Of a DNA stretch of 64,000 nucleotides, positions 3,685 to 58,488 are shown piece by piece. The DNA comes from Eledone cirrhosa (taxonomy: Eukaryota), in NCBI GenBank assembly GCA_964016885.1, contig OZ024742.1, positions 242,420,001 through 242,484,000 of the forward strand, written 5' to 3'. A program made the translations under genes and the position numbers. Below the pieces are notes generated by a model. The model worked only from the letters and a program-made list of their open reading frames with translations. It ran no database searches and was not told the origin of the DNA. Every line of letters begins with the position of its first letter. Positions within the stretch are counted from its first letter, which is position 1.

Positions 3685-3740
<56 letters not shown>

Positions 3741-3742
<2 letters not shown>

Positions 3743-4412
3743 AAAAGAATGAAACGAAATTTCATTTCTCACTCTTAGTACGGCTGGTACTTAGTACGGC
3801 GTGGTTCGGGCTGTTTGTTTACAAACAAGCCCAGCGTTATAATAAATGTTCGGTAAACCCATACGTACATATATATATGTGTGCATGTATGTATATATAT
3901 ATACATACTACTGTACGTCTGTATACATATATGTATGTACGTATACATACATACTTGTATACATATATGTATGTACGTATACATACATACTTACATTTAA
4001 GTACCAGCCGTACTAAGAGTGAGAAATGAAATTTCATTTCATTCTTTTCCATTTATCGTTTTCGGTGCACCCGGCCGACTAACTCACTCGATATGCAAAT
4101 TAGGCTGCTCAGCCGTTAATATACATAAGGAAAGTATATACTTTCAGACGTTCAACCATCTGACAGAAAGGTATACGATGCTGACGATAGCTAATAAGCT
4201 TGAAACTAGTACATCGTTCCTGTGTCAAAAAGGTGACGATGTTTGCCTTAACACTATGCGGCGTGGTTTGGGCTGTTTGTTAACAAACAAGCCGAGCATT
4301 ATAATAAATGTTCGGTAAACCCATACGTACATATATATATGTGTGCATGTATATATATATACATACTACTGAACGTCTGTATACATATATTTATGTACGT
4401 ATACATGCATAA
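3741..4412 (+). mobile_element. Retrozyme-like element family A, locus 1: ~1.3 tandem units plus inverted 3741-3793 segment
   Basis: Unit repeats (CGGCGTGGTT at ~3797 and ~4259); homologous to the 17723, 21139 and 52645 loci; no ORF; contains an HHR. Confidence 0.8.
4175..4217 (+). ncRNA. Minimal type I hammerhead ribozyme, family A
   Basis: ACGATG-CTGACGA-TAGC TAATAA GCTT-GAA-ACTAGT-A-CATCGT: perfect stem I, intact core, palindromic stem III. Predicted GUA cleavage after 4211. Confidence 0.88.
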
Positions 4413-5247: not shown

Positions 5248-5298
5248 GGCTTCTACATGACTAGAACTGTTTCATTCGGGAGAAATCATCAGGAAGCC
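5248..5298 (-). ncRNA. Hammerhead ribozyme, family B
   Basis: rc GGCTTC-CTGATGA-TTTCTCCCGAAT-GAA-ACAG TTCTAGTC ATGT-A-GAAGCC; stem I GGCTTC/GAAGCC. Confidence 0.75.
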
Positions 5299-5499: not shown

Positions 5500-5720
5500 T
5501 TAATCTTTTATTTTAATAAATATTTGCTCTACGGTTCTTATATATTTGATATATATTTATCCTTATCGAGCCCTCTTTGGATTTTAGTCTTCAAATTTAT
5601 TATTATTACTATATATATATATATAGTGGTAGAATACTGGAAGGTAATATCCGTAGTGGGAGAGCACTCAGTCCATGGGACGAGTTAGGTAGAAGTGGTT
5701 ACACAACAGTTAGTTCACCA

Positions 5721-5763
5721 TACTGAGAACAATTGTTTCACCTCAGCGGATCCTCAGCTCGTA
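5721..5763 (-). ncRNA. Minimal hammerhead ribozyme, family D
   Basis: rc TACGAG-CTGAGGA-TCC GCTGA GGT-GAA-ACAATTGT-T-CTCAGTA; palindromic stem III. Confidence 0.7.
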
Positions 5764-8075: not shown

Positions 8076-8719
8076 GTTAATCTAATTTATCGATTCTGAA
8101 AAATAAAAACGCAAACTTAACGGAGTCAGAATGTAAAATGCCAAAACTAAATATTTTGCCTATTTTGTTCGATGCTCCGTAAACTCCGACAATCCATATT
8201 TTTTCTGTCTCGTTTTTTTTTTTTGTTTTTGTTTTTTTTTCTGTTGTTGCTGTTTTTTGTTGGTGAGGCATTGATGTCTTGTTTCGTCCATTTCTTCCAT
8301 TTATTTTCCTTCGCAACCATCTCTCATTTCACATAGCCATGTGTACACAATTAAGATACTAATATAGACTTTCACAGTTAATCGCTATTTAGAGGAGAAA
8401 GAGAAAATGATGTCAGACAAATGACGCAATGTGACTTAGCGATTTAATCCTCACTTGGATACACAAGCATAAAAACATTTATAGCTACCGTCAGAAAATA
8501 TTTTACAAATAAATACATAAGTCAAGCTATTATATGTAAAAACTCGTTGTTCTTTTTTAGACAAGTGAGGAGGAACGGGTGGAAGAAAGGCAGATAAAGA
8601 GAGAAGAGGAAAAAGAAAATGAAAGGAAAAAAGAATAATGGCTGAGAGAGAAAAGATGAACTAAAAAGAAAAGAAAGAGAGGGAGAATGATAAAAAGAGA
8701 AAGGACAAAAGATAAACAG

Positions 8720-8906
8720 AATAATTGTTTCTACTTTTGGCACAAGGCCAGCAAATACCCAGTGTATTACTGGTACTTTATTTTATCGACCCCGTAAGGA
8801 TGAAAGGCAGAGTTAACCTCGGCGGGATTTGAACTCAGATCATAAAGGGAGGTAACTCTATGCTTCAAAGCATGGCGTCCGACCCTCTACCGATACTGCC
8901 AATCCA
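8720..8906 (-). mobile_element. tRNA-derived SINE (abundant family S1)
   Basis: rc TGGATTGGCAGTATCGGTAGAG..GAGTTCAAATCCCGCC..GCCTTTCATCCTTACGGGGTCGATAAAA..GGCCTTGTGCC; more than 12 copies in the window. Confidence 0.85.
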
Positions 8907-10048: not shown

Positions 10049-11086
10049 AGCCACGACCCTCACCCGAGAGCAGCTCGACTCCTTTCTCTCCTTCTTCTGC
10101 TCCTTCCACCACTCCCTCCACTTCAGCACCTCTATCGCCACCACCCACGTCCACTTCTTAGACATCACCGTCGCCTTCGACCCCTCCCACCACTCCCTCG
10201 TCACCTCCGCCTTCTTCAAACCCACCGACCCCCACTCCTACCTCGATTTCACCTCTTCCCACCCTATACACACTAAACACTCTATTCCCTACTCCCAACT
10301 TCTCCTTCAGGATCCGCCGCCTCTGCAGCCGAGATGCTGACTTTGAGTCCCAGGCCCTTTCCCTAGTCAGCCATTTCATCCGCAGAAGCTCCCCCCCCCT
10401 CTCGTCCACACCGCTCTCACCTGCGCCCGTGCTGTCCACCGCTCCACCACCCTCACCCCACGCCACCGCACACCCACCGTCTCCCCTTCCCCATCACCTA
10501 CCACCCATCCACCCTACCCCTCCACCGCCTCTTCCTCCGCCTCCAGTCCGACTCCTCCACCTCCCACATCTTCCCAGCCCCACCACTCCCCTCCTTCAAA
10601 CGCGCACGCAATCTCCGCACCCTCCTCGTCCGCAGCTCCCTACCCCCAACCCACGCTCTCTTCCCCCCCCGTTCCCTTCCCTGTTCCAGACCTCGTTGCA
10701 GCACCTGTCCTCACATCACCAACACCACCACCTTCCAAGGTCCCAACGGCCACTCTCTCTCTGTCCGGCACGCCTTCCGCTGCACCTCCTCCAACCTAGT
10801 CTATGGACTTCGCTGCACGGAGTGTAGCGCAACCTACGTCGGACTGACTGGACATCGCCTGGCGGACCGTTTTACCGAACAGCTCCGGGATATTCGTCTC
10901 GGCGGTAGTTTCCCCATCGCCCGCCACTTTGGCGCCCCTGGACATTCCGCGCACCACCTCACAGTCTGTGTCCTACTCAAATGCCACGAAACACCCGCCA
11001 CCCTCCTCAGGGTCGAACAACGCACCATCTTCACCCTACAGACCCACACTCCCCCCGGCCTGAACTCCCCATCCCTATTCCTTTAG
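10049..11086 (+). pseudogene. PLE pol fragment: RT C-terminus, Cys linker and GIY-YIG endonuclease; frameshifted
   Basis: FLDITV..FFKPTDPHSYLDFTSSHPIHTKHSIPYSQ..RIRRLCS; PCSRPRCSTC; NLVYGLRCTECSATYVGLTGHRLADRF..E..GLN; TAG at 11084-11086. Confidence 0.88.
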
Positions 11087-17666: not shown

Positions 17667-17722
17667 GTGAAAAATTCAACGGGAACAAAACAGAGAGGCA
17701 GTACGAACAATATATATATATA

Positions 17723-18165
17723 TAAACGGAAAAAATGAAACGAAATTTCATTTCTCACTCTTAGTACGGCTGTTACTTAAATATATATATGTATACGTAC
17801 ATACATATATGTATACAGACGTACAGTAGTATGTATATATATATATACATACATGCACACATATATATATGTACGTATGGATTCACCGAACATTTATTAT
17901 AATGCTCGGTGTGTTTGTAAACAAACATCCAGAATTAATCCGTACAGTGTCTAGCAACCATCGTTGCTCATTTGTTCAACACTGACAAAGGAAGGCTGTA
18001 CTAGTTTCAAGCTTATTAGCTCTCGTCAGCAACGTATACCTTCCTGCCAGATGATTGAACGTCCTAAAGTATATACTTTCCTTATGCATATTAACGGCTG
18101 AGCAGCCTAATTTGCATATCGAGTGAGTTAATCGGCCAGTGCCCCGGCAGATTAACTCACTCGAT
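17723..18165 (-). mobile_element. Retrozyme-like family A, locus 2: monomer plus short inversion 18144-18165
   Basis: Homologous to the other family A loci; flanked by TA tracts. Confidence 0.8.
17993..18035 (-). ncRNA. Hammerhead ribozyme, family A
   Basis: rc ACGTTG-CTGACGA-GAGC TAATAA GCTT-GAA-ACTAGT-A-CAGCCT. Confidence 0.8.
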
Positions 18166-18564: not shown

Positions 18565-18615
18565 GGCTTCTACAGGACTAGAACAGTTTCCTTCGGGAGA
18601 AATCATCAGGAAGCC
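18565..18615 (-). ncRNA. Hammerhead ribozyme, family B
   Basis: rc GGCTTC-CTGATGA-TTTCTCCCGAAG-GAA-ACTG..CTGT-A-GAAGCC. Confidence 0.72.
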
Positions 18616-19696: not shown

Positions 19697-19775
<79 letters not shown>

Positions 19776-19862
19776 CAAGGTTTTTTATATGAAATCATGT
19801 GTTTAAACAAATATTGTTGGTTGGTTGTTTGTTCTATGTGTGTGTGTGTTTTCATTTTGTCC

Positions 19863-21075
19863 TTAATTGTAAGTTGTGATGTTACTGCTCCACTCATATT
19901 TTCTATTTAATTTTGGTTGTAATTCGTTTATGCTTACTGCCTCTGTAATTTGCCTAAGCATTGCATCTTTTCTGTGTGTGGATTCTATTTTTATTTCTAT
20001 GTTCTCTAATCTACCCCTGTGCTCTATCTTAGCATGTTGGTAGAGCACAGATGATTCTTTATTATCTTGAAGGTCTCGCCAGTGTTCATTTATTCGTTCC
20101 CCTATACTACGAGCTGTCTCACCTATGTACACTATATTTTTGTTTCTACATTGTCCTTCAGTACATCTTATGCTATACACTACATTTCTAGTTTTACAGT
20201 TAATATGGGGGCTTATTTTACAGGTTATACATTTCTTATCTATACATGAGGGTCTTTGGAACGGGTATGTCTTGCTAATAAGTGTTTTTACGGAGGTACC
20301 TGGTCTTTCTACTATCTTAATATTGAGTTTATGTTTATTTAGGGCCATTCTAAATTTGTAGGCTAGTTCGCCTCTAGGTATTTATTGCTATCATACCATG
20401 AGTTTATTCTATTGGCCTTGTTCCTAGTTCTTTCTATTCTATTCCAAAATTTGCTCCTATACAAGGGGCAGGTCCCATTTATGTCATTATTTACCATTTT
20501 TTCCCATTTGGTTCTGGCTCCTCTATACACTCTGATTCTATCTCTCTGATTGTAGCCAGAGAACTGCATACGGTGGATGAAGTGTTGTATGTGTCTCTTT
20601 AGTTCTTCGGGGTTGCACATGCGGGACACATTTCTCATCACCCGTACCAAATCCGCAATCAGTATGTTGATTTTGGTATGGTCCGAAATGGCCGAGTTTC
20701 GGTGGATTAGATGTTTGGAAGTCATGGATTTGGCATAATGGGAATGGAGGATTTGTTTTTGGTTGTTAATGGTATCTAACCAGAGCTTTATGGCTAGTAC
20801 AGGTAATCGATGGTTGGGGTGTCTACTTGGGTAGTCTATAGTAACTCTAATGCTCTGGTGGATGGAGTTTGCTATTTGCTGGATGCTTTCCATTGTGTTT
20901 TTCTCTAGTTCCTGACTGTTCTTTAGTGGGGGTGTCTTAACTACGATGTTTATATCATCTACGTAGCGGGAGTACATTATCAGGGTTAAGCTGTCTTCTA
21001 ATTGTTCTTTAAGTTTTTGTTTAAGTCTACTGTCCCACCATACTATGAATAAGTTAGCTATGTCGCCTGCAATGC
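19863..21075 (-). pseudogene. PLE pol 3' fragment (RT YVDD through GIY-YIG), probably Naiad-type, with an internal frameshift
   Basis: [25 protein letters not shown]..; CIDKKCITC linker; NVVYSIRC..VYIGETARSIGERINEH..RQITEAV..LNRKYEW. Confidence 0.9.
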
Positions 21076-21084
21076 TAACACATA

Positions 21085-21142
<58 letters not shown>

Positions 21143-21369
21143 TATGTATACGTCCATATATATAAGTATGTATACGTCCATACATATATGTATACAGACG
21201 TACATTAGTGTGTATATATATATACATACATGCACACATATATATATATGTACGTATGGATTCACCAAACATTTATTATAATGCTCGGTGTGTTTGTAAA
21301 CAAACATCCCGTATTAAGCCGTAGTGTCTAGCAACCACCGTTGCTCGTTTGTTCAACGCTGACAAAGGA

Positions 21370-21412
21370 ACGCTGTACTAGTTTCAAGCTTGTTAGCTAT
21401 CGTCAGCAACGT
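21370..21412 (-). ncRNA. Hammerhead ribozyme, family A
   Basis: rc ACGTTG-CTGACGA-TAGC TAACAA GCTT-GAA-ACTAGT-A-CAGCGT. Confidence 0.87.
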
Positions 21413-21799
21413 ATACCTTCCTGCCAGATAGCTGAACGTCCGATAGTATATACTTTCCTTATGCATATTAACGGCTGTGTAGCCCAATTTGCATATCGAG
21501 TGTGTTAATCGGCCGGGTGCACCCAAAACGATAAACGGAAAAAATGAAACGAAATTTCATTTCCCACTCTTAGTACGGCTGTTACTTAAATATAAGTATG
21601 TATACGTACATACATATATGTATACAGACGTACAGTAGTATGTATATATATATATACATACATGCATACATATATAAATGTACGTATGGATTAACCAAAC
21701 ATTTATTATAATGCTCGGTGTGTTTGTAAACAAACATCCCGTATTGAGCCCTAGTGTCTAGCAACCACGGTTGCTCGTTTGTTCAACACTGACAAAGGA

Positions 21800-21842
21800 A
21801 CGCTGTACTAGTTTCAAGCTTGTTAGCTATCGTCAGCAACGT
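21800..21842 (-). ncRNA. Hammerhead ribozyme, family A (tandem partner)
   Basis: Identical to 21370-21412. Confidence 0.87.
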
Positions 21843-21972
21843 ATACCTTCCTGCCAGATAGTTGAACGTATACATATATGTATGAATACATATATGTATC
21901 TACGTATACATACTTATATTTAAGTAACAGCCGTACTAAGAGTGAGAAATGAAATTTCGTTTCATTTTTTCC

Positions 21973-22008
<36 letters not shown>

Positions 22009-29184: not shown

Positions 29185-29336
29185 ATGTATGTAAAAGGTA
29201 AACAGAAATAACAACACAATCGGTACAGTATATGGAAAGTATATATTAGGTTAACGCTTCCTGCTATATCAAGCGTTAACCTAATATATACTTTCCATAT
29301 ACTGTACCGATTGTGTTGTTATTTCTGTTTACCTTT

Positions 29337-29346
<10 letters not shown>
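29184..29346. repeat. Perfect ~76-bp-arm inverted repeat in a TA tract
   Basis: 29184-29259 is the reverse complement of 29271-29346. Confidence 0.9.
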
Positions 29347-29449: not shown

Positions 29450-29497
29450 ATTGCCCTGATGAGTCCTTAATAGGACGAAACATTGTTGGCTAATAAA
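29450..29497 (+). ncRNA. Minimal type I hammerhead ribozyme (family H) with polyA signal
   Basis: ATTGCC-CTGATGA-GTCCT TAAT AGGAC-GAA-AC ATT GT-T-GGCTAAT overlapping AATAAA; canonical G10.1-C11.1 pair. Confidence 0.85.
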
Positions 29498-30801: not shown

Positions 30802-31134
30802 TATGTATATATATATATATATGTATATATATACATATGACTATATTTATATATATGTGTGTGTGTGTGTGTATGTGTATATATGTATGTATGTATCCCA
30901 CATGCATGCATATATATCCATACATAACCACGGGCGTACGTGTGTGTGTACACGCACACAAATACATATATACATGTTTGAATATATTAGAAATATAAAT
31001 AAAATCCTGCGGCCGCAACAGTTCGTTTAGCCGGTTGGAAGTGAATCACAAACTTGAATCACAAACTTGAAACAATATTTTACATAATTGAAAGTTTCTA
31101 ATCTGTATAATAACATAATTTGAGCCTATAAACA

Positions 31135-31620
31135 ATAATTGTTTCTACTTTAGGCACAAGGCCAGCAATTACCCAGTGCATTACTGGTACTTTATTTTAT
31201 CGACCCCGTAAGGATGAAAGGCAAAGTCAACCTCGGCGGGATTTGAACTTAGATCGTAAAGGGACGTAACTATGCTGGAAAGCATGGCGTCCGACCCTCT
31301 ACCGATACTGCCAATAAACAATAATGGTTTCTGAATTAGGCATAATTTTGGGAAGCAGGAAGACGATTGAATCGAGCCCAATGTGTTACTGGTGCTTATT
31401 TTATAGACCCCGTAAGGCAAATCTAACCTTAGAGGGATTTGAATTCCGAGCTTATACACAATAATGGTTTCTTATATAGTTACAAGGCCAGCAATTTGGG
31501 GGAAGGGAACTGTCGATTAAATCACCCCAGTGCGTGACTGGTACTTTATTTTATCGACCCCGTAAGGGTGAAAGGCAAAGTTAACATCAGAGTGATTTGA
31601 ACTACGAGCTTATATACAAT
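31135..31620 (-). mobile_element. Tandem SINE S1 array (one full and two partial copies)
   Basis: Repeated TTTATCGACCCCGTAAGG..GGGATTTGAACT. Confidence 0.8.
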
Positions 31621-33017: not shown

Positions 33018-33068
33018 GACTTCTACAGGACTAGAACTGTTTCATTCGGGAGAAATCATCAGGTAGCC
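33018..33068 (-). ncRNA. Hammerhead ribozyme, family B
   Basis: rc GGCTAC-CTGATGA-..-GAA-ACAG TTCTAGTC CTGT-A-GAAGTC. Confidence 0.7.
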
Positions 33069-36843: not shown

Positions 36844-38164
36844 GCGTGGGGGGTGTAGGAATCCGTAGATGGAATAAATATTTTGAAGCCAGTTCGCTAT
36901 GAGTGTGGTCTTGATAAACGCTAACAAGCGAGAAACAGACTGTCGATCACCCTCCCTTTGTTTTTATCGAAAATAAGTAGGTGACATAGTCACTACTTTA
37001 AAACGCATAGGGAATGGTCTTCAAGATGTTTTTAATTAAACATACAGTATATTGCCGAATATTCATATATCTATATATATATATATATATATATTCGAAA
37101 ATGTGTGTAATCCTTGGTACAGTTAGGTATATTAAGACAGGGGGAAGAAAAAATGGCTTCACTTGTGCTTTCAACAAATTTATTTTCTTCACAAAATCAA
37201 AAATGGATTTTTTTCCGGATAAGAAAAAAAAATTTTTTTTCGTAAAAAAATTATTTTATAAATTAAGTTAGGTCTTAGGAGTTTTGGTTAACGTAGGAGG
37301 TATTGTTTCGTTTTTAGAACGACCTTTCACGCTGAGGTGCGCTTGTAAAACTGATGTGTATGTGGTGTGTTGTTCTATATATAGGGATTTAACATGTCTG
37401 TGGTGTGGTGGGGTTTTTTTCCCCCCTTTTAATAAGTTTATGGGTGTAGATGTGTTGAAAAAGTGTTAATAGAAGTAATGAGTTGAGACGATGAGTAGGG
37501 TTGGGTGGGGAGAAATGTAGCAAGTGTGGCCTGCCCCGGTCATTGTCGAAAAATTCCTTTATTCAGGGGATTCCTTTGTGTTGAGAATGGTCACAGGCAA
37601 ATCGCACCTGCCAAGTTTGTAAACAATTATTTTATACATGCATATATTATATACATACATATATACATACATATATGTACACATAAACACATACAGACAC
37701 ATGCACACATATACATACATATACACATATACATATATATATATATATTTACACATATATATATATATATACATATATATACATACATACACTTACACAT
37801 ACACATACAAGTACATACATACACACATACATATATACACATACATATACATACATACATATATATATATGTGTGTGTGTGTGTGTACACACAAGCACAT
37901 AAAGACACATATATAGATACATATATATATATATACATATATATACATACATCTACATACATACATATACACATACAGAAACATACACATATGCACACAC
38001 ATATATACATATATGCACATACATACACACATACACATATATATAGATACATACATATACATACACACACATATAAACATATATCTATATATACATATAT
38101 ATATATATATACACAAACATACACATACATACATATATATATATATACACATATATACACACAT

Positions 38165-38207
<43 letters not shown>

Positions 38208-38418
38208 CACACACACATACAAACATACACACATCCATACATATATATACACACACACACATACACACACCCACATACATAAAACCCACACGTACATACA
38301 TCCATACATACCTACACACATATATGTGTGTGTCTCACCGTTCACTCAGATATGCATGTGTACACATAAGAAGAAGGGGGGGGGGTAGTGAAATGGAATT
38401 TTACCTCCGAGTGTTAAT

Positions 38419-39843
38419 TCATTTTTTCGTGTTCAGTAGTGGTTTAAATTTTTCAATGAAGAATTCTTCTTTATATCTGCGGAAATGTTCGTTATCCGAC
38501 CATATCTTGAAGAAAGGGAAGATTGTGAATTTTCCCTTCCCGCATGATGCAAAGTGTGCGCTACATGTGGTATTTCTGACTGTGGGGTCTTTAATTTGTT
38601 GTTTATGTACCCGGACTCTATCATGTAATTCCGTTCCGGTTTCCCCAATGTAATACTCTTTACACTGTAGACATGTTGCGCAATATATTAGGTTTTTCGT
38701 TTTGCAGTTCATGTTTGCATTGACCTTGAAATTATCATGGTTTTTGAAGGACAACTGTTTGCCCTCTTCGATGAGTTCACAGGTTCCACATCTAGGGTCC
38801 CCGCATTTCGTCACTTGCTTTGATTCCATGTTGGTCGTAAATTTTGCCTTGGTAATTAGTTTTTTAAGGTTGGGTGCTTGGCGTCTGCTATAAATTATCT
38901 GTGTGTTTTTTAAGAGCGCATTCGTTTTGGTAGATTGCTGTAGCATCGGGAGATACTGCTTAGCAGTTTTCACAATGTTGATGTTCCCTGGGTTGTGAGT
39001 GATGATAGCAGGGTTTTCTTTTTTATGTTGTGGGTTTGGTTTTTTCAGTGTTGTTATTGGGATGTTCTTAGCCTTGGAGATGGCTGTGTTGATGAGTTTC
39101 ATCGGGTATTCTTGTTTTTTAAGGAATTTTTTCAGGTCACATAATCTTTTTTCTTGTAGTACGGGGTGTGTTGCTATAGTGCAGATGCTCCTTGCCATGT
39201 TGAAGGGAATGTTCCTTTTCGTATGTGAGGGGTGTGCTGACCGGAAATTTAAGTATTGGTGTGTGTCAGTGGGTTTGCAAAATAGGTCCGTTATGATATT
39301 TTCCCCTTCTTTAATGATGAGGATATCTAGAAAGGGCAGTTCCTTTTCGTTACATTCCATAGTGAATTGTATAGCTTCATGAAGCCTGTTTAAGATCGAA
39401 TGAAATTTTTGTAGGTCTGTTTGGCTTCTGTTCCAGAAGATGAAGCAGTCATCTAGGTAACGTATCCAGTTTTTATTAATGTAGAAGGCGAAGTCGTGAC
39501 TGAATGTTATCTGTAGTTGGGAATATAATTTTGCCTCTAAGTGACCCATAACGAGCGTTGCATATGTAGGGGCCACTTTGGCACCCATGGCTGTTCCTTT
39601 TATTTGTAGATAAAGTTCGTTGTCAAAGAGGAAGTGGTTGTTTTCCAATACTAATTTAAGTCCTTCCAAGATGAATTCTTTGGGGAATCTTTCTGAAATG
39701 TGACTTGAGTGTTTTGTAATCCAGAAGTCCACAGCTTCAATCCCTAGGTCGTGTGGAATGTTAGTGTACAGGCTTATTACATCAAAACTGACTAGGATTG
39801 TATCCTGGTATACTTTTTGGGGGATATAGTTAAGGAATTCCAT
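38419..39843 (-). CDS. PLE reverse transcriptase + GIY-YIG endonuclease (frame open from 40044; part of a disrupted pol)
   Basis: SFDVISLYTNIPH, QIKGTAMG, RYLDDCF, LPFLDILI, KPTDTHQYL, KCGDPRCGTC, NLIYCATC..YYIGETG..R..H; upstream in-frame LRPIIAG; stop at NFYG*PK. Confidence 0.92.
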   Translation of the reverse strand: MEFLNYIPQKVYQDTILVSFDVISLYTNIPHDLGIEAVDFWITKHSSHISERFPKEFILEGLKLVLENNHFLFDNELYLQIKGTAMGAKVAPTYATLVMGHLEAKLYSQLQITFSHDFAFYINKNWIRYLDDCFIFWNRSQTDLQKFHSILNRLHEAIQFTMECNEKELPFLDILIIKEGENIITDLFCKPTDTHQYLNFRSAHPSHTKRNIPFNMARSICTIATHPVLQEKRLCDLKKFLKKQEYPMKLINTAISKAKNIPITTLKKPNPQHKKENPAIITHNPGNINIVKTAKQYLPMLQQSTKTNALLKNTQIIYSRRQAPNLKKLITKAKFTTNMESKQVTKCGDPRCGTCELIEEGKQLSFKNHDNFKVNANMNCKTKNLIYCATCLQCKEYYIGETGTELHDRVRVHKQQIKDPTVRNTTCSAHFASCGKGKFTIFPFFKIWSDNEHFRRYKEEFFIEKFKPLLNTKK

Positions 39844-40044
39844 ATCATCTCTGATGTAGCTTGGAACTTTTTTACATAGGGGTTTGAGTATGATGTCTAA
39901 TAGGTTGCTAAGACGTTGTGTGCTTGAGGCTGGGCCAGCAATAATGGGGCGTAATTTTAAGTCTGTCGGCTTTGGTGCTTCGATGTATGATGTATTTTTC
40001 CCTTTTATGTTGTTTTGGATTTCTATGGATTTGGGAATTTTTGG

Positions 40045-41410
40045 TTATCCATAGAAGTTGCTGGTTTTCATTTCGAAGTTGGTTAGGTAATCTACTTCTT
40101 TTGGTGTTAGGTTGTTTTAGTACTTTGTTGTTAGTTTGCCTATTTGGTTCCTCGATTTCCTTTCTTCGTTTTTACTGATTTTCCTGTAGAAGTTTTCGTC
40201 ATTCAAGTGTGCTAGAACCATATCTGTGTAGTGGTTTGTGTCCATGATGACGATTGCTCACCTTTGTCCGCTTCTTTTATTATTATTGAGGAATCCCTTT
40301 GTAGCTTGTTCAATGCTAGTAGTTGGTCTGTAGGGATGTTGCGTTTGTGTTTCGTCTCGGCCGTATTTGTACTTCCTGATCGGCGAAGGCAGGTTATGTA
40401 TTCCTCCAGGTATGTATCTCTATTTAGCGGGGTTGTGAAGTTCTTTTTGTTTTTCACCAGTGATTCTTCCTCGTATTGTACACCCTGGAAGAATTCTCCT
40501 AAGCGTAATTTTCGACAGTATTCTTCTGTGTCTTTTATAACATCGGCTGTATCTGCTTTCGGAGTGGGAGTGAACTTCAGTCCATTTTCTAACAGTTGTA
40601 TTTCTGGTTGTGTTAATTTCTTGGCTGATATATTGATTATTTTTGGTTCGATTGGTTCTTTCTCGTCAGGTGCCACTTGAAAGGTGGTGCTTTTTTCTTT
40701 TTTTCTTTCATTTGGTGCGAGGCCTCTAGTCGTAAAAAATGGGTGCCATTTGGGATAGGGGTGTTTCTGTTGTGGTGAAACCTTTGGCCCGCCGGAACTT
40801 CATGCCGGTAACTGGTTGGACGATAGACTCTTGCGTGGTTGTTGCTGTATGGGGGTCTGGTTCTTCTGTTGTTTCGTTCAGTATTCATGTGTCTTTGATT
40901 TTGTGTCCAGTAATTGTTCTTGGTGTTATGGCAGTGGTTGTATCTGGTTCTGGTGTTGAGTATTGGGTCCGTATGTAGTTGTGTGTTTGGGGTTACCCAA
41001 TATCTGGTTGTTGTTGGTTTATTGTGTGTGGGTGCTTCATTTCTTGTGTTGTTGTATTTTCCTGAGTTCTGGGGTATCCTATGGGTTTGTTTTCTGGGTT
41101 TTATTTGGTCTTTCCCATAGTTATCTTCATATTCTTGAAGCCATTGAGTTCTTGACTCCAAGATTTTCTTTGATTTTAACTCCTCTCTAGTTGTATCTGT
41201 CTGCCATAGGTTAAGGAGTTTTTCACGTACATTGCTGCTGCTTCTTTTGTTTATTTCCTCTTGGATAGTGGGGTCGCATTTTTCAAATTTCTCTTTGAAT
41301 TTTGGCACTCTTAGGCGGAGTAGGGTGATTTCTGTCTCAAGTGTTTGGAGTGCTATATTTAGACTTGTTGCAGTTTCTTCCTTTGATTCCGATGGTATTT
41401 CTTTAATTCG
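40045..41410 (-). pseudogene. Frameshifted N-terminal part of PLE pol
   Basis: IINISAKKLT..LLENGLKFTPTP..IIIKEADKG (PLE N-terminal DKG motif), split across frames. Confidence 0.85.
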
Positions 41411-51229: not shown

Positions 51230-51362
51230 ACCCATGACCTCCACCCATGCAAATCACCACCCTCTCCTACTACCAGAACAGATATAAATACCACCATATT
51301 ACTTGGGCAGCCAGCTTCCTGATGATTTCTCCGGTATGAAACAGTTCTAGTCATTTCTATAT

Positions 51363-51459: not shown

Positions 51460-51529
51460 AGAGGTAGAACAGTGGAAGGTAATATCAGTAGTGGTAGACC
51501 ACTCAGGTCAGTGGGACGAGTTAGGTAGA

Positions 51530-51878
<349 letters not shown>

Positions 51879-51891
51879 TTAATATAGAAAT

Positions 51892-51943
51892 GGCTTCTAC
51901 AGGCCTAGAACTGTTTCATTCGAAAGAAATCATCAGGTAAACC
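51892..51943 (-). ncRNA. Hammerhead ribozyme, family B (diverged)
   Basis: rc ..CTGATGA-TTTC TTTC GAAT-GAA-ACAG..CTGT-A-GAAGCC. Confidence 0.6.
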
Positions 51944-52109
51944 GACTGTCAATGTGATATGGTGGTATTTAAATATTTTCTGGTGGTAGGGGAAGGTGGT
52001 GATTGGGATGGCTGGGGTCATTGGCTGATGAATTTAAAGATAAAAATACATAGTGATACAGAATGATACAAATGCAGGCACTCCTAATTTTCAAGGATTA
52101 TTTATTCTA

Positions 52110-52505
52110 AGGGCGGTGGATTGGCAGTATCGGTAGAGGGTCGGACGCCATGCTTTTCCGCATAGTTACGTCCCTTTACGATCTGAGTTCAAATCCCGCC
52201 GAGCTTGACTTTGCCTTTCATCCTTACGGGTTCGATAAAATAAAGTACTAGTAATGCACTAGGTAATTTGCTGGCCTTGTGCCTAAAGTAGAAACAGTTA
52301 TTTATTCTAAGCGGTGGACTGTCAGTATCGGTAGAGGGTCGGATGCCATGCTTTGGTTCATAGAGTTACGGTCCTTGCCATTCTGAGTTCAAATCCCTCC
52401 GAGGTTAACTTTGCCTTTCATCCTTACGCGGTCGATGAAATAAAGTACCAGTAATGTACTGGGTATTTTGCTGGCCTTGTGTCAATAGTAGAAACAGTTA
52501 TTTAT
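52110..52505 (+). mobile_element. Two tandem SINE S1 copies
   Basis: Full heads GGCGGTGGATTGGCAGTATCGG; TTATTCTAAG appears before, between and after the copies. Confidence 0.85.
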
Positions 52506-52759
52506 TCTAAGCAAACAAAGGGTTTTCATTAAGTGGCTGTATTAACATGCTCCGTTAAAGGATGGTGAAGTTTGAAAAAGATGGTCAGATGTTTACAATC
52601 ACATGCACACACGCACATATATATATACAAATATATATATCTATATAAGTTGTAATGATGAAAACGAAATTTCATTTCTCACTCTTAGTACGGCACTTAC
52701 TTAAATGTAAGTATGTATGTATACGTACATACATATATGTATACAGACGTACAGTAGCA

Positions 52760-52815
<56 letters not shown>

Positions 52816-52965
52816 CAGGTACACATACATATATGTACGTATCAGTTTAGCTGACGTTTATTATAACGCCCGCTTTGTCCGGTTGTAAACAAACTGACAG
52901 CCTGAATTTATGCCGTACGGTGTTAAGGCAAACACGTCACCTTTTTGTTCAACACTGACACAGGA

Positions 52966-53008
52966 ACGATGTACTAGTTTCAAGCTTCTTAGCTATCATC
53001 AGCACCGT
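52966..53008 (-). ncRNA. Hammerhead ribozyme, family A
   Basis: rc ACGGTG-CTGATGA-TAGC TAAGAA GCTT-GAA-ACTAGT-A-CATCGT. Confidence 0.87.
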
Positions 53009-53331
53009 ATACCCTTCTGCCAGATGGTTGAACGTTCGAAAGTATATACTTTCCTTATGAAAATTAACGGCTGAGCAGCCTAATTTGCATATCGAGTGAG
53101 TTCAATCGGCCAGGCGCACCGAAAACAATAAGTTGTAATAAAATGAAAACGAAATTTCATTTCTCACTCTTAGTGCGGCACTTACTTAAATGTAAGTTTT
53201 ATTACAACTTATCCTTTTCGGTGCGCCTGGCCGACTGAACTCACTCGATATGCAAATTAGGCTGCTCAGCTGTTAATTTTCATAAGGAAAGTATATACTT
53301 TCGAACGTTCAACCATCTGGCAGAAGGGTAT

Positions 53332-53374
53332 ACGGTGCTGATGATAGCTAAGAAGCTTGAAACTAGTACATCGT
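53332..53374 (+). ncRNA. Hammerhead ribozyme, family A
   Basis: ACGGTG-CTGATGA-TAGC TAAGAA GCTT-GAA-ACTAGT-A-CATCGT. Confidence 0.87.
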
Positions 53375-53599
53375 TCCTGTGTCAGTGTTGAACAAAAAGG
53401 TGACGTGGTTGCCTTAACACAGTACGGCATAAATTCAGGCTGTCAGTTTGTTTACAAACGGACAAAGCGGGCGTTATAATAAACGTCCGCTAAACTGATA
53501 CGTACATATATGTATGTGTACCTGTATGTATATATATATATATGCATGCTACTGTACGTCTGTATACACATATGCATGTACGTATACATACATACTTAC

Positions 53600-53662
<63 letters not shown>

Positions 53663-56494: not shown

Positions 56495-57335
56495 ACAATT
56501 TTAGTTTCTGATTTAGGCACGATGCCAACAATTTTAGGGAAGAGGAAAGTCGATTAAATCAACCCCGTTGCGTTACTGGTATTTTATATGTTGGACCTCG
56601 TAAGGATAAAAGGCAAGGCTAATTTTGGCGGGATTTCAACTCAGAACGTAAAAGGACGTAACTATATGCCGCAAAGCATGTTGTCCGACGCTCTACCGAT
56701 AATGTCCATACACTTTTCTAATCCGGGAAACAATTATAAAATAAAATATAATAATTGTTTCTACTTTAGGCACAAGGCCAGCAATTAGCCCGTGCATTAC
56801 TGGTACTTTATTTTATCGACCCCGTAAGGATGAAAGGGAAAGTTAACCTTGGCGGGATTTGAACTCAAACCGTAAAGGGACGTAACTGTGCTGCAAAGCA
56901 TGGCGTCCGACCCTCTATCGATACTGCCAATAATGGTTTCTGATTTAGGCACAAGGCCAGCAATTTTGGGAGAGGAGAAAGTCAATTAAATCGACCCCAG
57001 TGCGTGACTAGTACTTTATTTTATGGACCCAATAAGGATTAAAAGCAAAGCTAACTTCGGCAGGATTTGAACTCAGAACATAAAGGGTTGCATCGCTAAG
57101 CTGTGGCGCAAGGTGTCCGACGCTCTACCTATACTGCCAATTCACCATAATAGTTTCTATTTTTGGCACAAAGCCAGCAATTATCCCATTGCATTACTGT
57201 TACTTTATTTTATCGACCCCGTAAGGATGTAAGGCGAAGTTAACCTCGGTGGGATTTGAACTCACAGCATAAAGGGCCGTAACTCTATGCTGCAAAGTAT
57301 AGCGTCCGACCCTCTACCGATACTGCCAATCCACT
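56495..57335 (-). mobile_element. Four tandem SINE S1 copies
   Basis: Four head-to-tail repeats of the ~190-230 bp SINE. Confidence 0.85.
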
Positions 57336-57557
57336 GTAATAATAGCAGTTTGTTCAAGCACGTGGCAAAGTCTGTTATTTTGAAACTTCCAAGCATGAAA
57401 AAAAAGATGAAGTATCCTTGACCCACTTATCTAATATTAATATTTCAGTTTCTGCTGTGCAAGAATATTATTCTTAAGAGTATTGAACAGAAATGTATAT
57501 TAAAGTTTTTAATAAAGACTAAAGTGAAATAACGACGTGTAGCCATTATTAATTGTA

Positions 57558-57955
57558 GGGCGGTGGATTGGTACTATCGGTAGAGAGACGGATGCCATGC
57601 TTCCCACCATAGTTACGTCCCTTTACAGTCTGAGTTCAAATCCCGCCGAGGCTAACTTTAGTTTTCATCCTTACGGGGTCGATGAAATAAAATACCTGTA
57701 ATGCATTGGGGTAATTTCTGGCCTTGTGCCAAAAGTAAAAACAATTATTAATTGTAGGGCGGTGAATTAGCATTATCGATAGAGCGTCAGACACCATGCT
57801 TTGCAGCATAGAGTTCCGACCCTTTACGTCCTGAGTTCAAATCCGGCCAAGGTTAACTTTGCCTTTCATCCTTACGGGGTCGATAAAATAAAGCACCAGT
57901 AATGTACTGGGTGATTGCTGGCCTTGTGCCAAAAGTAGAAACAATTATTAATTGT
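57558..57955 (+). mobile_element. Two tandem SINE S1 copies
   Basis: ATTATTAATTGTA occurs before, between and after the copies. Confidence 0.85.
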
Positions 57956-58091
57956 ATTCCCCGTCACACACTGATTCGAAACATAGATATTACACTATCA
58001 GCATGACATTTTACATCCTGCAATAGTAAATATTGTTAGTTACATGTCCTCCCCTCTTCTCTGCTTCATCATTTAGCATTTATATTACTCT

Positions 58092-58272
58092 AGATTGGCA
58101 GTATCGGTAGAGGGTCGGACGCCATGCTTTCCAGCATAGTTACGTCCCTTTACGATCTGAGTTCAAGTCCCGCCGAGGTTGACTTTGCCTTTCATCCTTA
58201 CGGGGTCGATAAAATAAAGTACCAGTAATGCACTGGGTATTTGCTGGCCTTGTGCCTAAAGTAGAAACAATT
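58092..58272 (+). mobile_element. SINE S1
   Basis: Near-consensus copy. Confidence 0.85.
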
Positions 58273-58488
58273 ATATTTTCAAGGTAAAGGCTCTACCTCA
58301 CATTATCTCACATAATATTGAATCTATGAGATTTTGATATTATTTATTTTGAGCAGCCAGTTACAGCTGGTTTGAACAGAGAGAGGTGAGAGAATTCTGG
58401 CTAGATACGGCCGGTTTAAATGCTAAAGGGTTAAATCATACCCACACGTACACACACACGCACAACGACACACACACACACACACACA

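Follow-up and report, generated by a model that had tools for sequence, protein, structure and literature searches.

A non-coding unit of 430 bp, found at four loci in a 64,000-nt stretch of the Eledone cirrhosa genome (contig OZ024742.1, positions 242,420,001 to 242,484,000, referred to as the window), belongs to a real, abundant and recently active family of non-LTR retrozymes. With a probability of roughly two in three, the unit is a high-copy retrozyme without genes, whose RNA is predicted to cut itself as a dimer and to circularise, and which would be copied in trans into (TA)n by a Penelope-like element (PLE). The retrozyme reading had been proposed in an initial annotation of the window and was supported by the lack of an ORF, the tandem units, a G+C content of 37%, a covarying type I hammerhead, a predicted dimer fold and a self-paired circle.

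The window was searched with a loose hammerhead pattern (CTGANGA..GAAA), which gave 15 matches where 2.45 would be expected by chance, a number that 100 shuffles never attained. Six of the matches belong to the retrozyme family (4181 and 53338 on the plus strand, 18029, 21406, 21836 and 53002 on the minus strand), and all six hammerheads of the initial annotation were located where it had placed them. Those at 21406 and 21836 are identical in core and stems and lie 430 nt apart, and the variants of stem I and the stem III palindrome ACTAGT were recovered as described. Stem I had been said to vary while staying paired, but the copy at 18029 carries a stem I mismatch. Of the head-to-tail arrangement claimed for three loci, a same-strand tandem of hammerheads was found at 21139-21978 only. 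Loci 3735-4410 and 17722-18137 contain one hammerhead each, and at 52645-53605 the two hammerheads stand back-to-back on opposite strands, because this locus consists of two long inverted arms. A junction of unit end to unit start was found in all four loci. The tandem array at 21139-21978 holds 1.65 minus-strand units, but an inverted plus-strand arm at 21874-21978 had been overlooked. The mapped features are as follows, with q for positions along the unit.

21161 to 21590, minus strand: full 430-bp unit of family A (q1 = 21590, q430 = 21161)
21591 to 21869, minus strand: 5'-truncated unit (q152-430), head-to-tail upstream of the full unit, 94.7% identical
21370 to 21412, minus strand: hammerhead of type I, predicted to cut at 21376/21375
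21800 to 21842, minus strand: identical second copy of the hammerhead, predicted to cut at 21806/21805
21376 to 21805, minus strand: predicted cut-to-cut monomer of 430 nt (circular fold)
21531 to 21590, minus strand: initial 60 nt of the unit, a hairpin-containing 'tail' bounded by the two inferred starts of reverse transcription
21874 to 21978, plus strand: short inverted arm, unit end (q386-430) followed by the 60-nt tail (21919-21978)
21132 to 21193, minus strand: 24-bp duplication of the unit 3' end
21087 to 21140, unstranded: (TA)27 tract, end of the long arm
21976 to 22005, unstranded: (TA)15 tract, end of the tailed arm
3735 to 4410, plus strand: subfamily B locus, a tail-only inverted arm (3793-3735), then a partial and a full unit; hammerhead 4181
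17722 to 18137, minus strand: family A locus, q77-430 (0.8 unit) and 60-nt tail; hammerhead 18029 with the stem I mismatch
52645 to 53594, unstranded as a whole: subfamily C locus, two long inverted arms, the minus arm tailed; hammerheads 53002 (minus) and 53338 (plus)

Other repeats were also present in the window. A short repeat with a hammerhead-like core occurs at 5270-5292, 18587-18609, 33040-33062, 51319-51341 and 51914-51936; it has a U-U at the base of stem II, a longer stem III with CTAG in the loop, and TA flanks. A further hammerhead-like repeat lies at 5625-5763 and 51460-51680, with cores at 5736-5757 (minus) and 51617-51638 (plus); the latter copy includes an inverted pair (51520-51680), and the cut site fits the usual pattern imperfectly. 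A lone hammerhead-like core with a canonical stem II is found in a TA-flanked stretch at 29456-29480, next to a perfect inverted repeat at about 29200-29340. A SINE-like repeat of about 200 bp, at 52098-52512, 56500-58290, 8712-8906 and 31124-31620 with several head-to-tail pairs, is presumably an octopus SINE.

The unit is devoid of protein genes, as had been claimed, the longest sense-strand ATG frame being 51 aa with the monomer read circularly. In a genome-wide search, a 31-nt core of the unit gave 24,634 exact matches on both strands of the 3.0-Gb genome and the reversed-sequence control none; the repeat is present at about 25,000 genomic copies. Forty evenly spaced pieces of 9.9 kb (396 kb) contained two loci of families A-C and no exact core, against about three expected, a shortfall due to uneven density or to a sample that is too small. 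With four loci in 64 kb, the window is thus richer than average. Subfamilies A, B and C of the window are 83-86% alike when one unit of each is compared. Family D is a sister family of 468 bp, about 68% alike over the aligned stretch, and its pattern matched the genome 5,328 times, the first 100 places listed all being family D. Family E (L117:300-1950, L066:6300-8500 and L219) has a unit of 310 bp with a similar ribozyme and a tail region in which no likeness was detected. The tandem unit measured 420-540 bp across the arrays compared. Arrays of family A reach 7.3 units, and family D forms very long inverted arrays of 12+6 and 10+10 monomers (L181-L184 and L150; G000:C1:30831000-30843000 and others). 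Contig matches in sequencing runs of other organisms (X4-X6) numbered 4, 12 and 1, too few to place the family there.

In this type I hammerhead, stem I comprises 6 bp, with a 3-nt bulge and a further helix distal to it; stems II and III have 4 and 2 bp. Stem II rests on a U-U mismatch, present at pair 10.1-11.1 in 160 of 161 matches, which came from 85 records, many of them picked via the core pattern; family D has a canonical G-C at this place. The initial annotation had called the ribozyme a minimal type I hammerhead. The minimal hammerhead of PLEs is marked by G10.1-C11.1 in a long helix II and by one additional base following position 9 (PMC4209133); none of these features was present in the unit, with its 4-bp helix II on U-U, and the layout is instead the one described as canonical in that paper. 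The middle pair of stem I (position 3) is U-G in 96 matches, G-U in 46, A-U in 14 and C-G in 2, together 158 of the 161. Among eight sequences of families A-E, 10 of 16 pairs change on both sides, which none of 500 shuffles reached, although the set is small and related and families D and E give most of the changes; 94% of the cells pair and no slid register comes close. Eleven of the 12 core positions are invariant across families A-D, against 176 of 389 positions elsewhere, and every family keeps a self-complementary stem III (ACGCGT in family E, otherwise ACTAGT). By this pattern of change the ribozyme is under selection. In 29 dispersed copies, single changes were not rarer in the core (3 in 12 columns) than elsewhere (80 in 269), and a test of the whole ribozyme gave p = 0.051; most copies therefore look to be decaying.

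Neither the UA in the bulge of stem I nor the AA.A of loop 2 varies, and the two probably form a loop-loop contact. Contacts of this kind in hammerheads are backed in general terms only by the available text of PMC6155905. Rfam gave no match in the window at the gathering score. With family A no hammerhead match appeared even at E 10, the locus yielding chance matches to microRNA hairpins only, and family D scored 37.7 bits (E 8.7e-7) with the full Hammerhead_HH9 model (RF02275), below its gathering score of 52.

Folding was predicted for the lone ribozyme, the dimer and the circle. In the lone ribozyme the core is predicted to be buried, and in two of three subfamilies it was not more stable than shuffled sequence (z -0.1, -2.2 and -1.0). 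In each of five natural dimers, the dimer-active fold is predicted to come within 0-4 kcal/mol of the free minimum and to be 15-19 kcal/mol more stable than a pair of monomer-active folds. The family A dimer has a competing structure at its minimum, in which the two stem II palindromes pair with each other, 2-4 kcal/mol lower than the active fold. Folded as a circle, the cut-to-cut monomer has a predicted energy of -128 kcal/mol with 67% of bases paired (z -6.0, 25 shuffles); AU-rich hairpins probably exaggerate this z-score. A weaker ribozyme is to be expected from the U-U at the base of stem II; an axolotl motif that shares the mismatch showed poor cleavage in monomer form (PMC7229834). Cleavage was absent for eight of nine predicted dimers tested in another study (bioRxiv 10.64898/2026.07.22.740005).

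Monomers were taken from cut site to cut site and compared within and between arrays. The 12+6 monomers of one family D array, on both sides of the inversion, show no differences and share three changes private to the array, with the nearest other array three changes away; in a second, the 10+10 monomers differ by 0.5 on average. The family A array L065 has 2.1 differences inside against 3.6 outside, the subfamily C array L067 none against 3, and both family E arrays none against 2. The older arrays L068 and L116 are not uniform, and the two units at 21161-21869 have no private change in common (2 and 3 private each). The young arrays are best explained by one monomer that was copied many times per event, as would happen on a circle, and the template was probably a self-cut circle. 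A uniform linear parent, later expansion at the DNA level or assembly polishing could also account for the uniformity.

Mobilisation by a PLE from uncut linear multimers, with an idle or late-acting hammerhead and uniform arms that stem from uniform parents, template jumping or DNA expansion, is an unlikely explanation. For the one PLE tested in vitro, the hammerhead was dispensable, mutants inserting like wild type; insertion drew mainly on uncut RNA, and the cut site did not appear as the end of any read (PMC11167929). The absence of a pile-up of 5' ends at the cut site would be expected here too, and long uniform arrays exist as possible parents. However, changes fixed in all units of both arms would then need a bottleneck of one monomer followed by re-expansion, while linear copying with 5' truncation can only shorten arrays, and both the ribozyme and the dimer palindrome have been kept across families that are about 68% alike.

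The anatomy of the insertions was mapped for 129 arms in 80 records, comprising the best whole-stretch matches, the first-listed loci of contig 1 and two window stretches, after removal of five duplicate records. The unit end terminates 57 of these arms and the tail end 60, with 12 ending elsewhere, so that 117 of 129 end at two fixed 3' sites, about 60 nt apart in family A. Records with one arm per strand have one end of each type in 20 of 22 cases. The other 58 records are one-armed (43) or complex (15), with the one-arm and tail-only counts inflated by subfamily C arms that broke into pieces. Two arms were found in 15 of 29 family D records, in every case with one end of each type. The arm ends are mostly followed by (TA)n, in which the insertions sit. 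The tail measures about 60 nt in family A, 62-64 nt in C and about 66-72 nt in D. The 5' ends are truncated and scattered, with one of 83 within 6 nt of the cut site against 2.6 expected, and single arms span up to seven cut sites.

Among the features described for PLEs are partial tandems, a truncated copy in inverse orientation and a tail at just one end (PMC8557442). The tail is reported as unique to these elements; a PLE protein was shown to nick both DNA strands and extend each of them, with reverse transcription beginning at two internal positions of the RNA, between which the tail lies (PMC11167929). By analogy, the layout can be read as one arm per strand with one start site per arm. 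Given this two-armed, tailed, Penelope-type layout, the unit was likely copied by a Penelope-like enzyme; that PLE machinery moves the unit is close to shown by the insertion anatomy. The link to PLEs is stronger than the initial annotation could know, as the PLE tail and inverted arms are present in the insertions themselves. A dispersed satellite that spread through events at the DNA level, its hammerhead a vestige, would account for the tandem layout, the AT-rich, microsatellite-like part and the roughly even decay of dispersed copies. The fixed 3' and scattered 5' ends, the paired inverted arms and the TA flanks are signs of target-primed reverse transcription instead, and the RNA fold covaries, which makes a satellite very improbable.

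Two PLE copies were identified in the window.

19770 to 21085, minus strand: PLE1, a 5'-truncated PLE of autonomous type with the end of the RT and a GIY-YIG domain, separated from the unit by the TA tract
37095 to 41410, minus strand: PLE2, a broken copy with RVT_1 and GIY-YIG and its own 38-nt tail

The PLE1 family has at least 150 matches at 94-100% among those listed, and frames of 1186-1240 aa in seven of the eight stretches fetched; on these figures it is a young family. Its pLTR is distinct, its hammerhead is of minimal type and its tail measures 60 nt. Both PLE1 and PLE2 carry a CX4CX2C linker, which fits Neptune as described in PMC8557442. The window copy of PLE1 is without the hammerhead part of the pLTR at 19770-19860 and its tail looks closer to that of a sister family, PLE1b, possibly through a template switch. 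At 21079-21090, where the (TA)27 tract gives way to PLE1 at its 5' side, about 8-10 nt match the 3' end of the unit in reverse, possibly an aborted start. A third, GIY-YIG-like PLE fragment lies on the plus strand at 10367-11086 and had no Pfam match at E 0.1. The adjoining PLE1 was considered as the owner of the unit and rejected, as the pLTR and hammerhead of its family differ.

The unit could itself derive from an autonomous PLE that is still in the genome but outside the sampled set, either as its pLTR or by a recent internal deletion. In Xenopus, retrozymes match PLE pLTRs in 24 of 57 families (bioRxiv 10.64898/2026.07.22.740005). A PLE2-related family (L085:980-1600, L234:2400-3014) has a pLTR hammerhead which shares the U-U stem II base and the palindromic stem III of the unit and is a lead for the origin of the retrozyme. 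The pLTR of an autonomous PLE had been named with the initial annotation as the case against it. With four PLE protein queries, no PLE frame was found joined to the unit at any of 282 cores of families A-D in 122 records, out of about 30,000 cores and with less than 1.5 kb of upstream sequence in some records. For three of the 282, a PLE frame stands on the same strand no more than 1.5 kb upstream, each time with the PLE's own hammerhead and a TA tract in between. Upstream of full units stands another unit and not an ORF. No homology was found between the unit and the pLTRs of PLE1, PLE1b and PLE2, the matches to PLE1 and PLE2 being confined to microsatellite-like DNA. An origin as pLTR or deletion derivative is improbable on this evidence, and the independent movement of the unit is clear whether or not there is a parent.

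The partner PLE was not singled out by tail likeness, tail length or two fusions. Alignments of the tail region to PLE1, PLE1b and PLE2 gave a best p of 0.035 in 15 comparisons, which is not significant. The ends of family E show TGTCT and TTCCAAT at about the spacing of the PLE2 ends, a likeness that is not significant either (p 0.11). Tail length was rejected as a fingerprint of the partner: family A and PLE1 share 60 nt and PLE2 has 38, but family D has about 66-72. Two loose-end motifs for a parent PLE had no match in the genome, and degenerate hammerhead patterns returned only families A-E among the first 100 places listed. Two of 93 PLE 5' ends, one of PLE1 and one of PLE2, join a retrozyme with no TA in between. 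In these fusions (L055/L241 at G000:C4:221456400-221459300, and L128/L242) arrays stand in line with 5'-truncated PLE1 and PLE2, and no retrozyme remainder was seen beyond the PLE; a template switch and an insertion that deleted the retrozyme end explain them equally well.

The family was compared with known systems. The metazoan non-LTR retrozymes of coral, mussel and axolotl (PMC7229834) are likewise ORF-less tandems of a few hundred bp with a GC content below 50%, a type I hammerhead, a self-paired predicted circle and PLEs in the same genome. The axolotl motif Amex2 has the U-U at the base of helix II, as in family A, and needs the dimer. Circular RNA was demonstrated for those retrozymes, whereas the circle is predicted from sequence here; the PLE tail, paired inverted arms and TA targets described here are absent from the account available in that paper. 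Vertebrate retrozymes (bioRxiv 10.64898/2026.07.22.740005) are also non-autonomous and PLE-dependent, in mostly short and some long arrays. In that study, whose available text includes no molluscs among the sampled genomes, the link to PLEs consists of co-occurrence and pLTR homology and expansion by unequal crossover is proposed, whereas the link here is the insertion layout and no parent pLTR was found.

PLEs with an endonuclease (EN+; Penelope/Poseidon and Neptune) have partial tandems, an inverted 5'-truncated arm, a tail at one end, microsatellite targets and a hammerhead in the repeat, as found here (PMC8557442, PMC11167929, PMC4209133). They differ in having an RT and GIY-YIG frame, of which the unit has neither part, in a tail reported as 30-40 nt against the 60 nt or more of families A, C and D, and in a minimal instead of a canonical hammerhead (PMC4209133). 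Plant LTR retrozymes have a type III hammerhead in LTRs, in contrast to the type I topology and tandem units found here. In the literature searched, chiefly open-access, no report of an octopus or squid retrozyme, or of retrozyme insertions with PLE tails, was found, though supplements may hold such motifs.

The preferred reading, a self-cutting and circularising retrozyme copied by PLEs, can be set out as a series of steps. Transcripts across tandem copies would be cut as dimers via the palindromic stem III, releasing monomers of 430 nt. By analogy with the retrozymes of PMC7229834, these may be closed into circles by a host ligase of the RtcB type. A PLE protein supplied in trans would nick both strands at a (TA)n target, by analogy with the PLE of PMC11167929, and reverse transcription from two internal sites, one per strand, would give one arm without and one arm with the tail. 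A reverse transcriptase running round the circle would produce arms of several identical units. How animal retrozymes spread is still a proposal in the texts available, with PLEs suspected and circles put forward as templates (PMC7229834; bioRxiv 10.64898/2026.07.22.740005).

A wider and tentative reading, put at well short of even odds, is that families A-D, with about 30,000 ribozyme copies, and family E are old, protein-free circular RNA parasites without a surviving parent, which may recruit a PLE by RNA shape and not by sequence and undergo rolling-circle copying on both nicked strands at once. If this is true, the arrays preserve direct genomic traces of reverse transcriptase running round circular RNA and copying it into animal chromosomes. 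The genome contains young PLEs with long frames and an in vitro PLE assay exists (PMC11167929), so the questions of the enzyme and of the circle are directly testable, family D being probably the best material for bench tests. The families add tens of thousands of candidate self-cutting RNAs that are missed by Rfam's own thresholds, and this family gives an unusually clear genomic footprint of how animal non-LTR retrozymes move.
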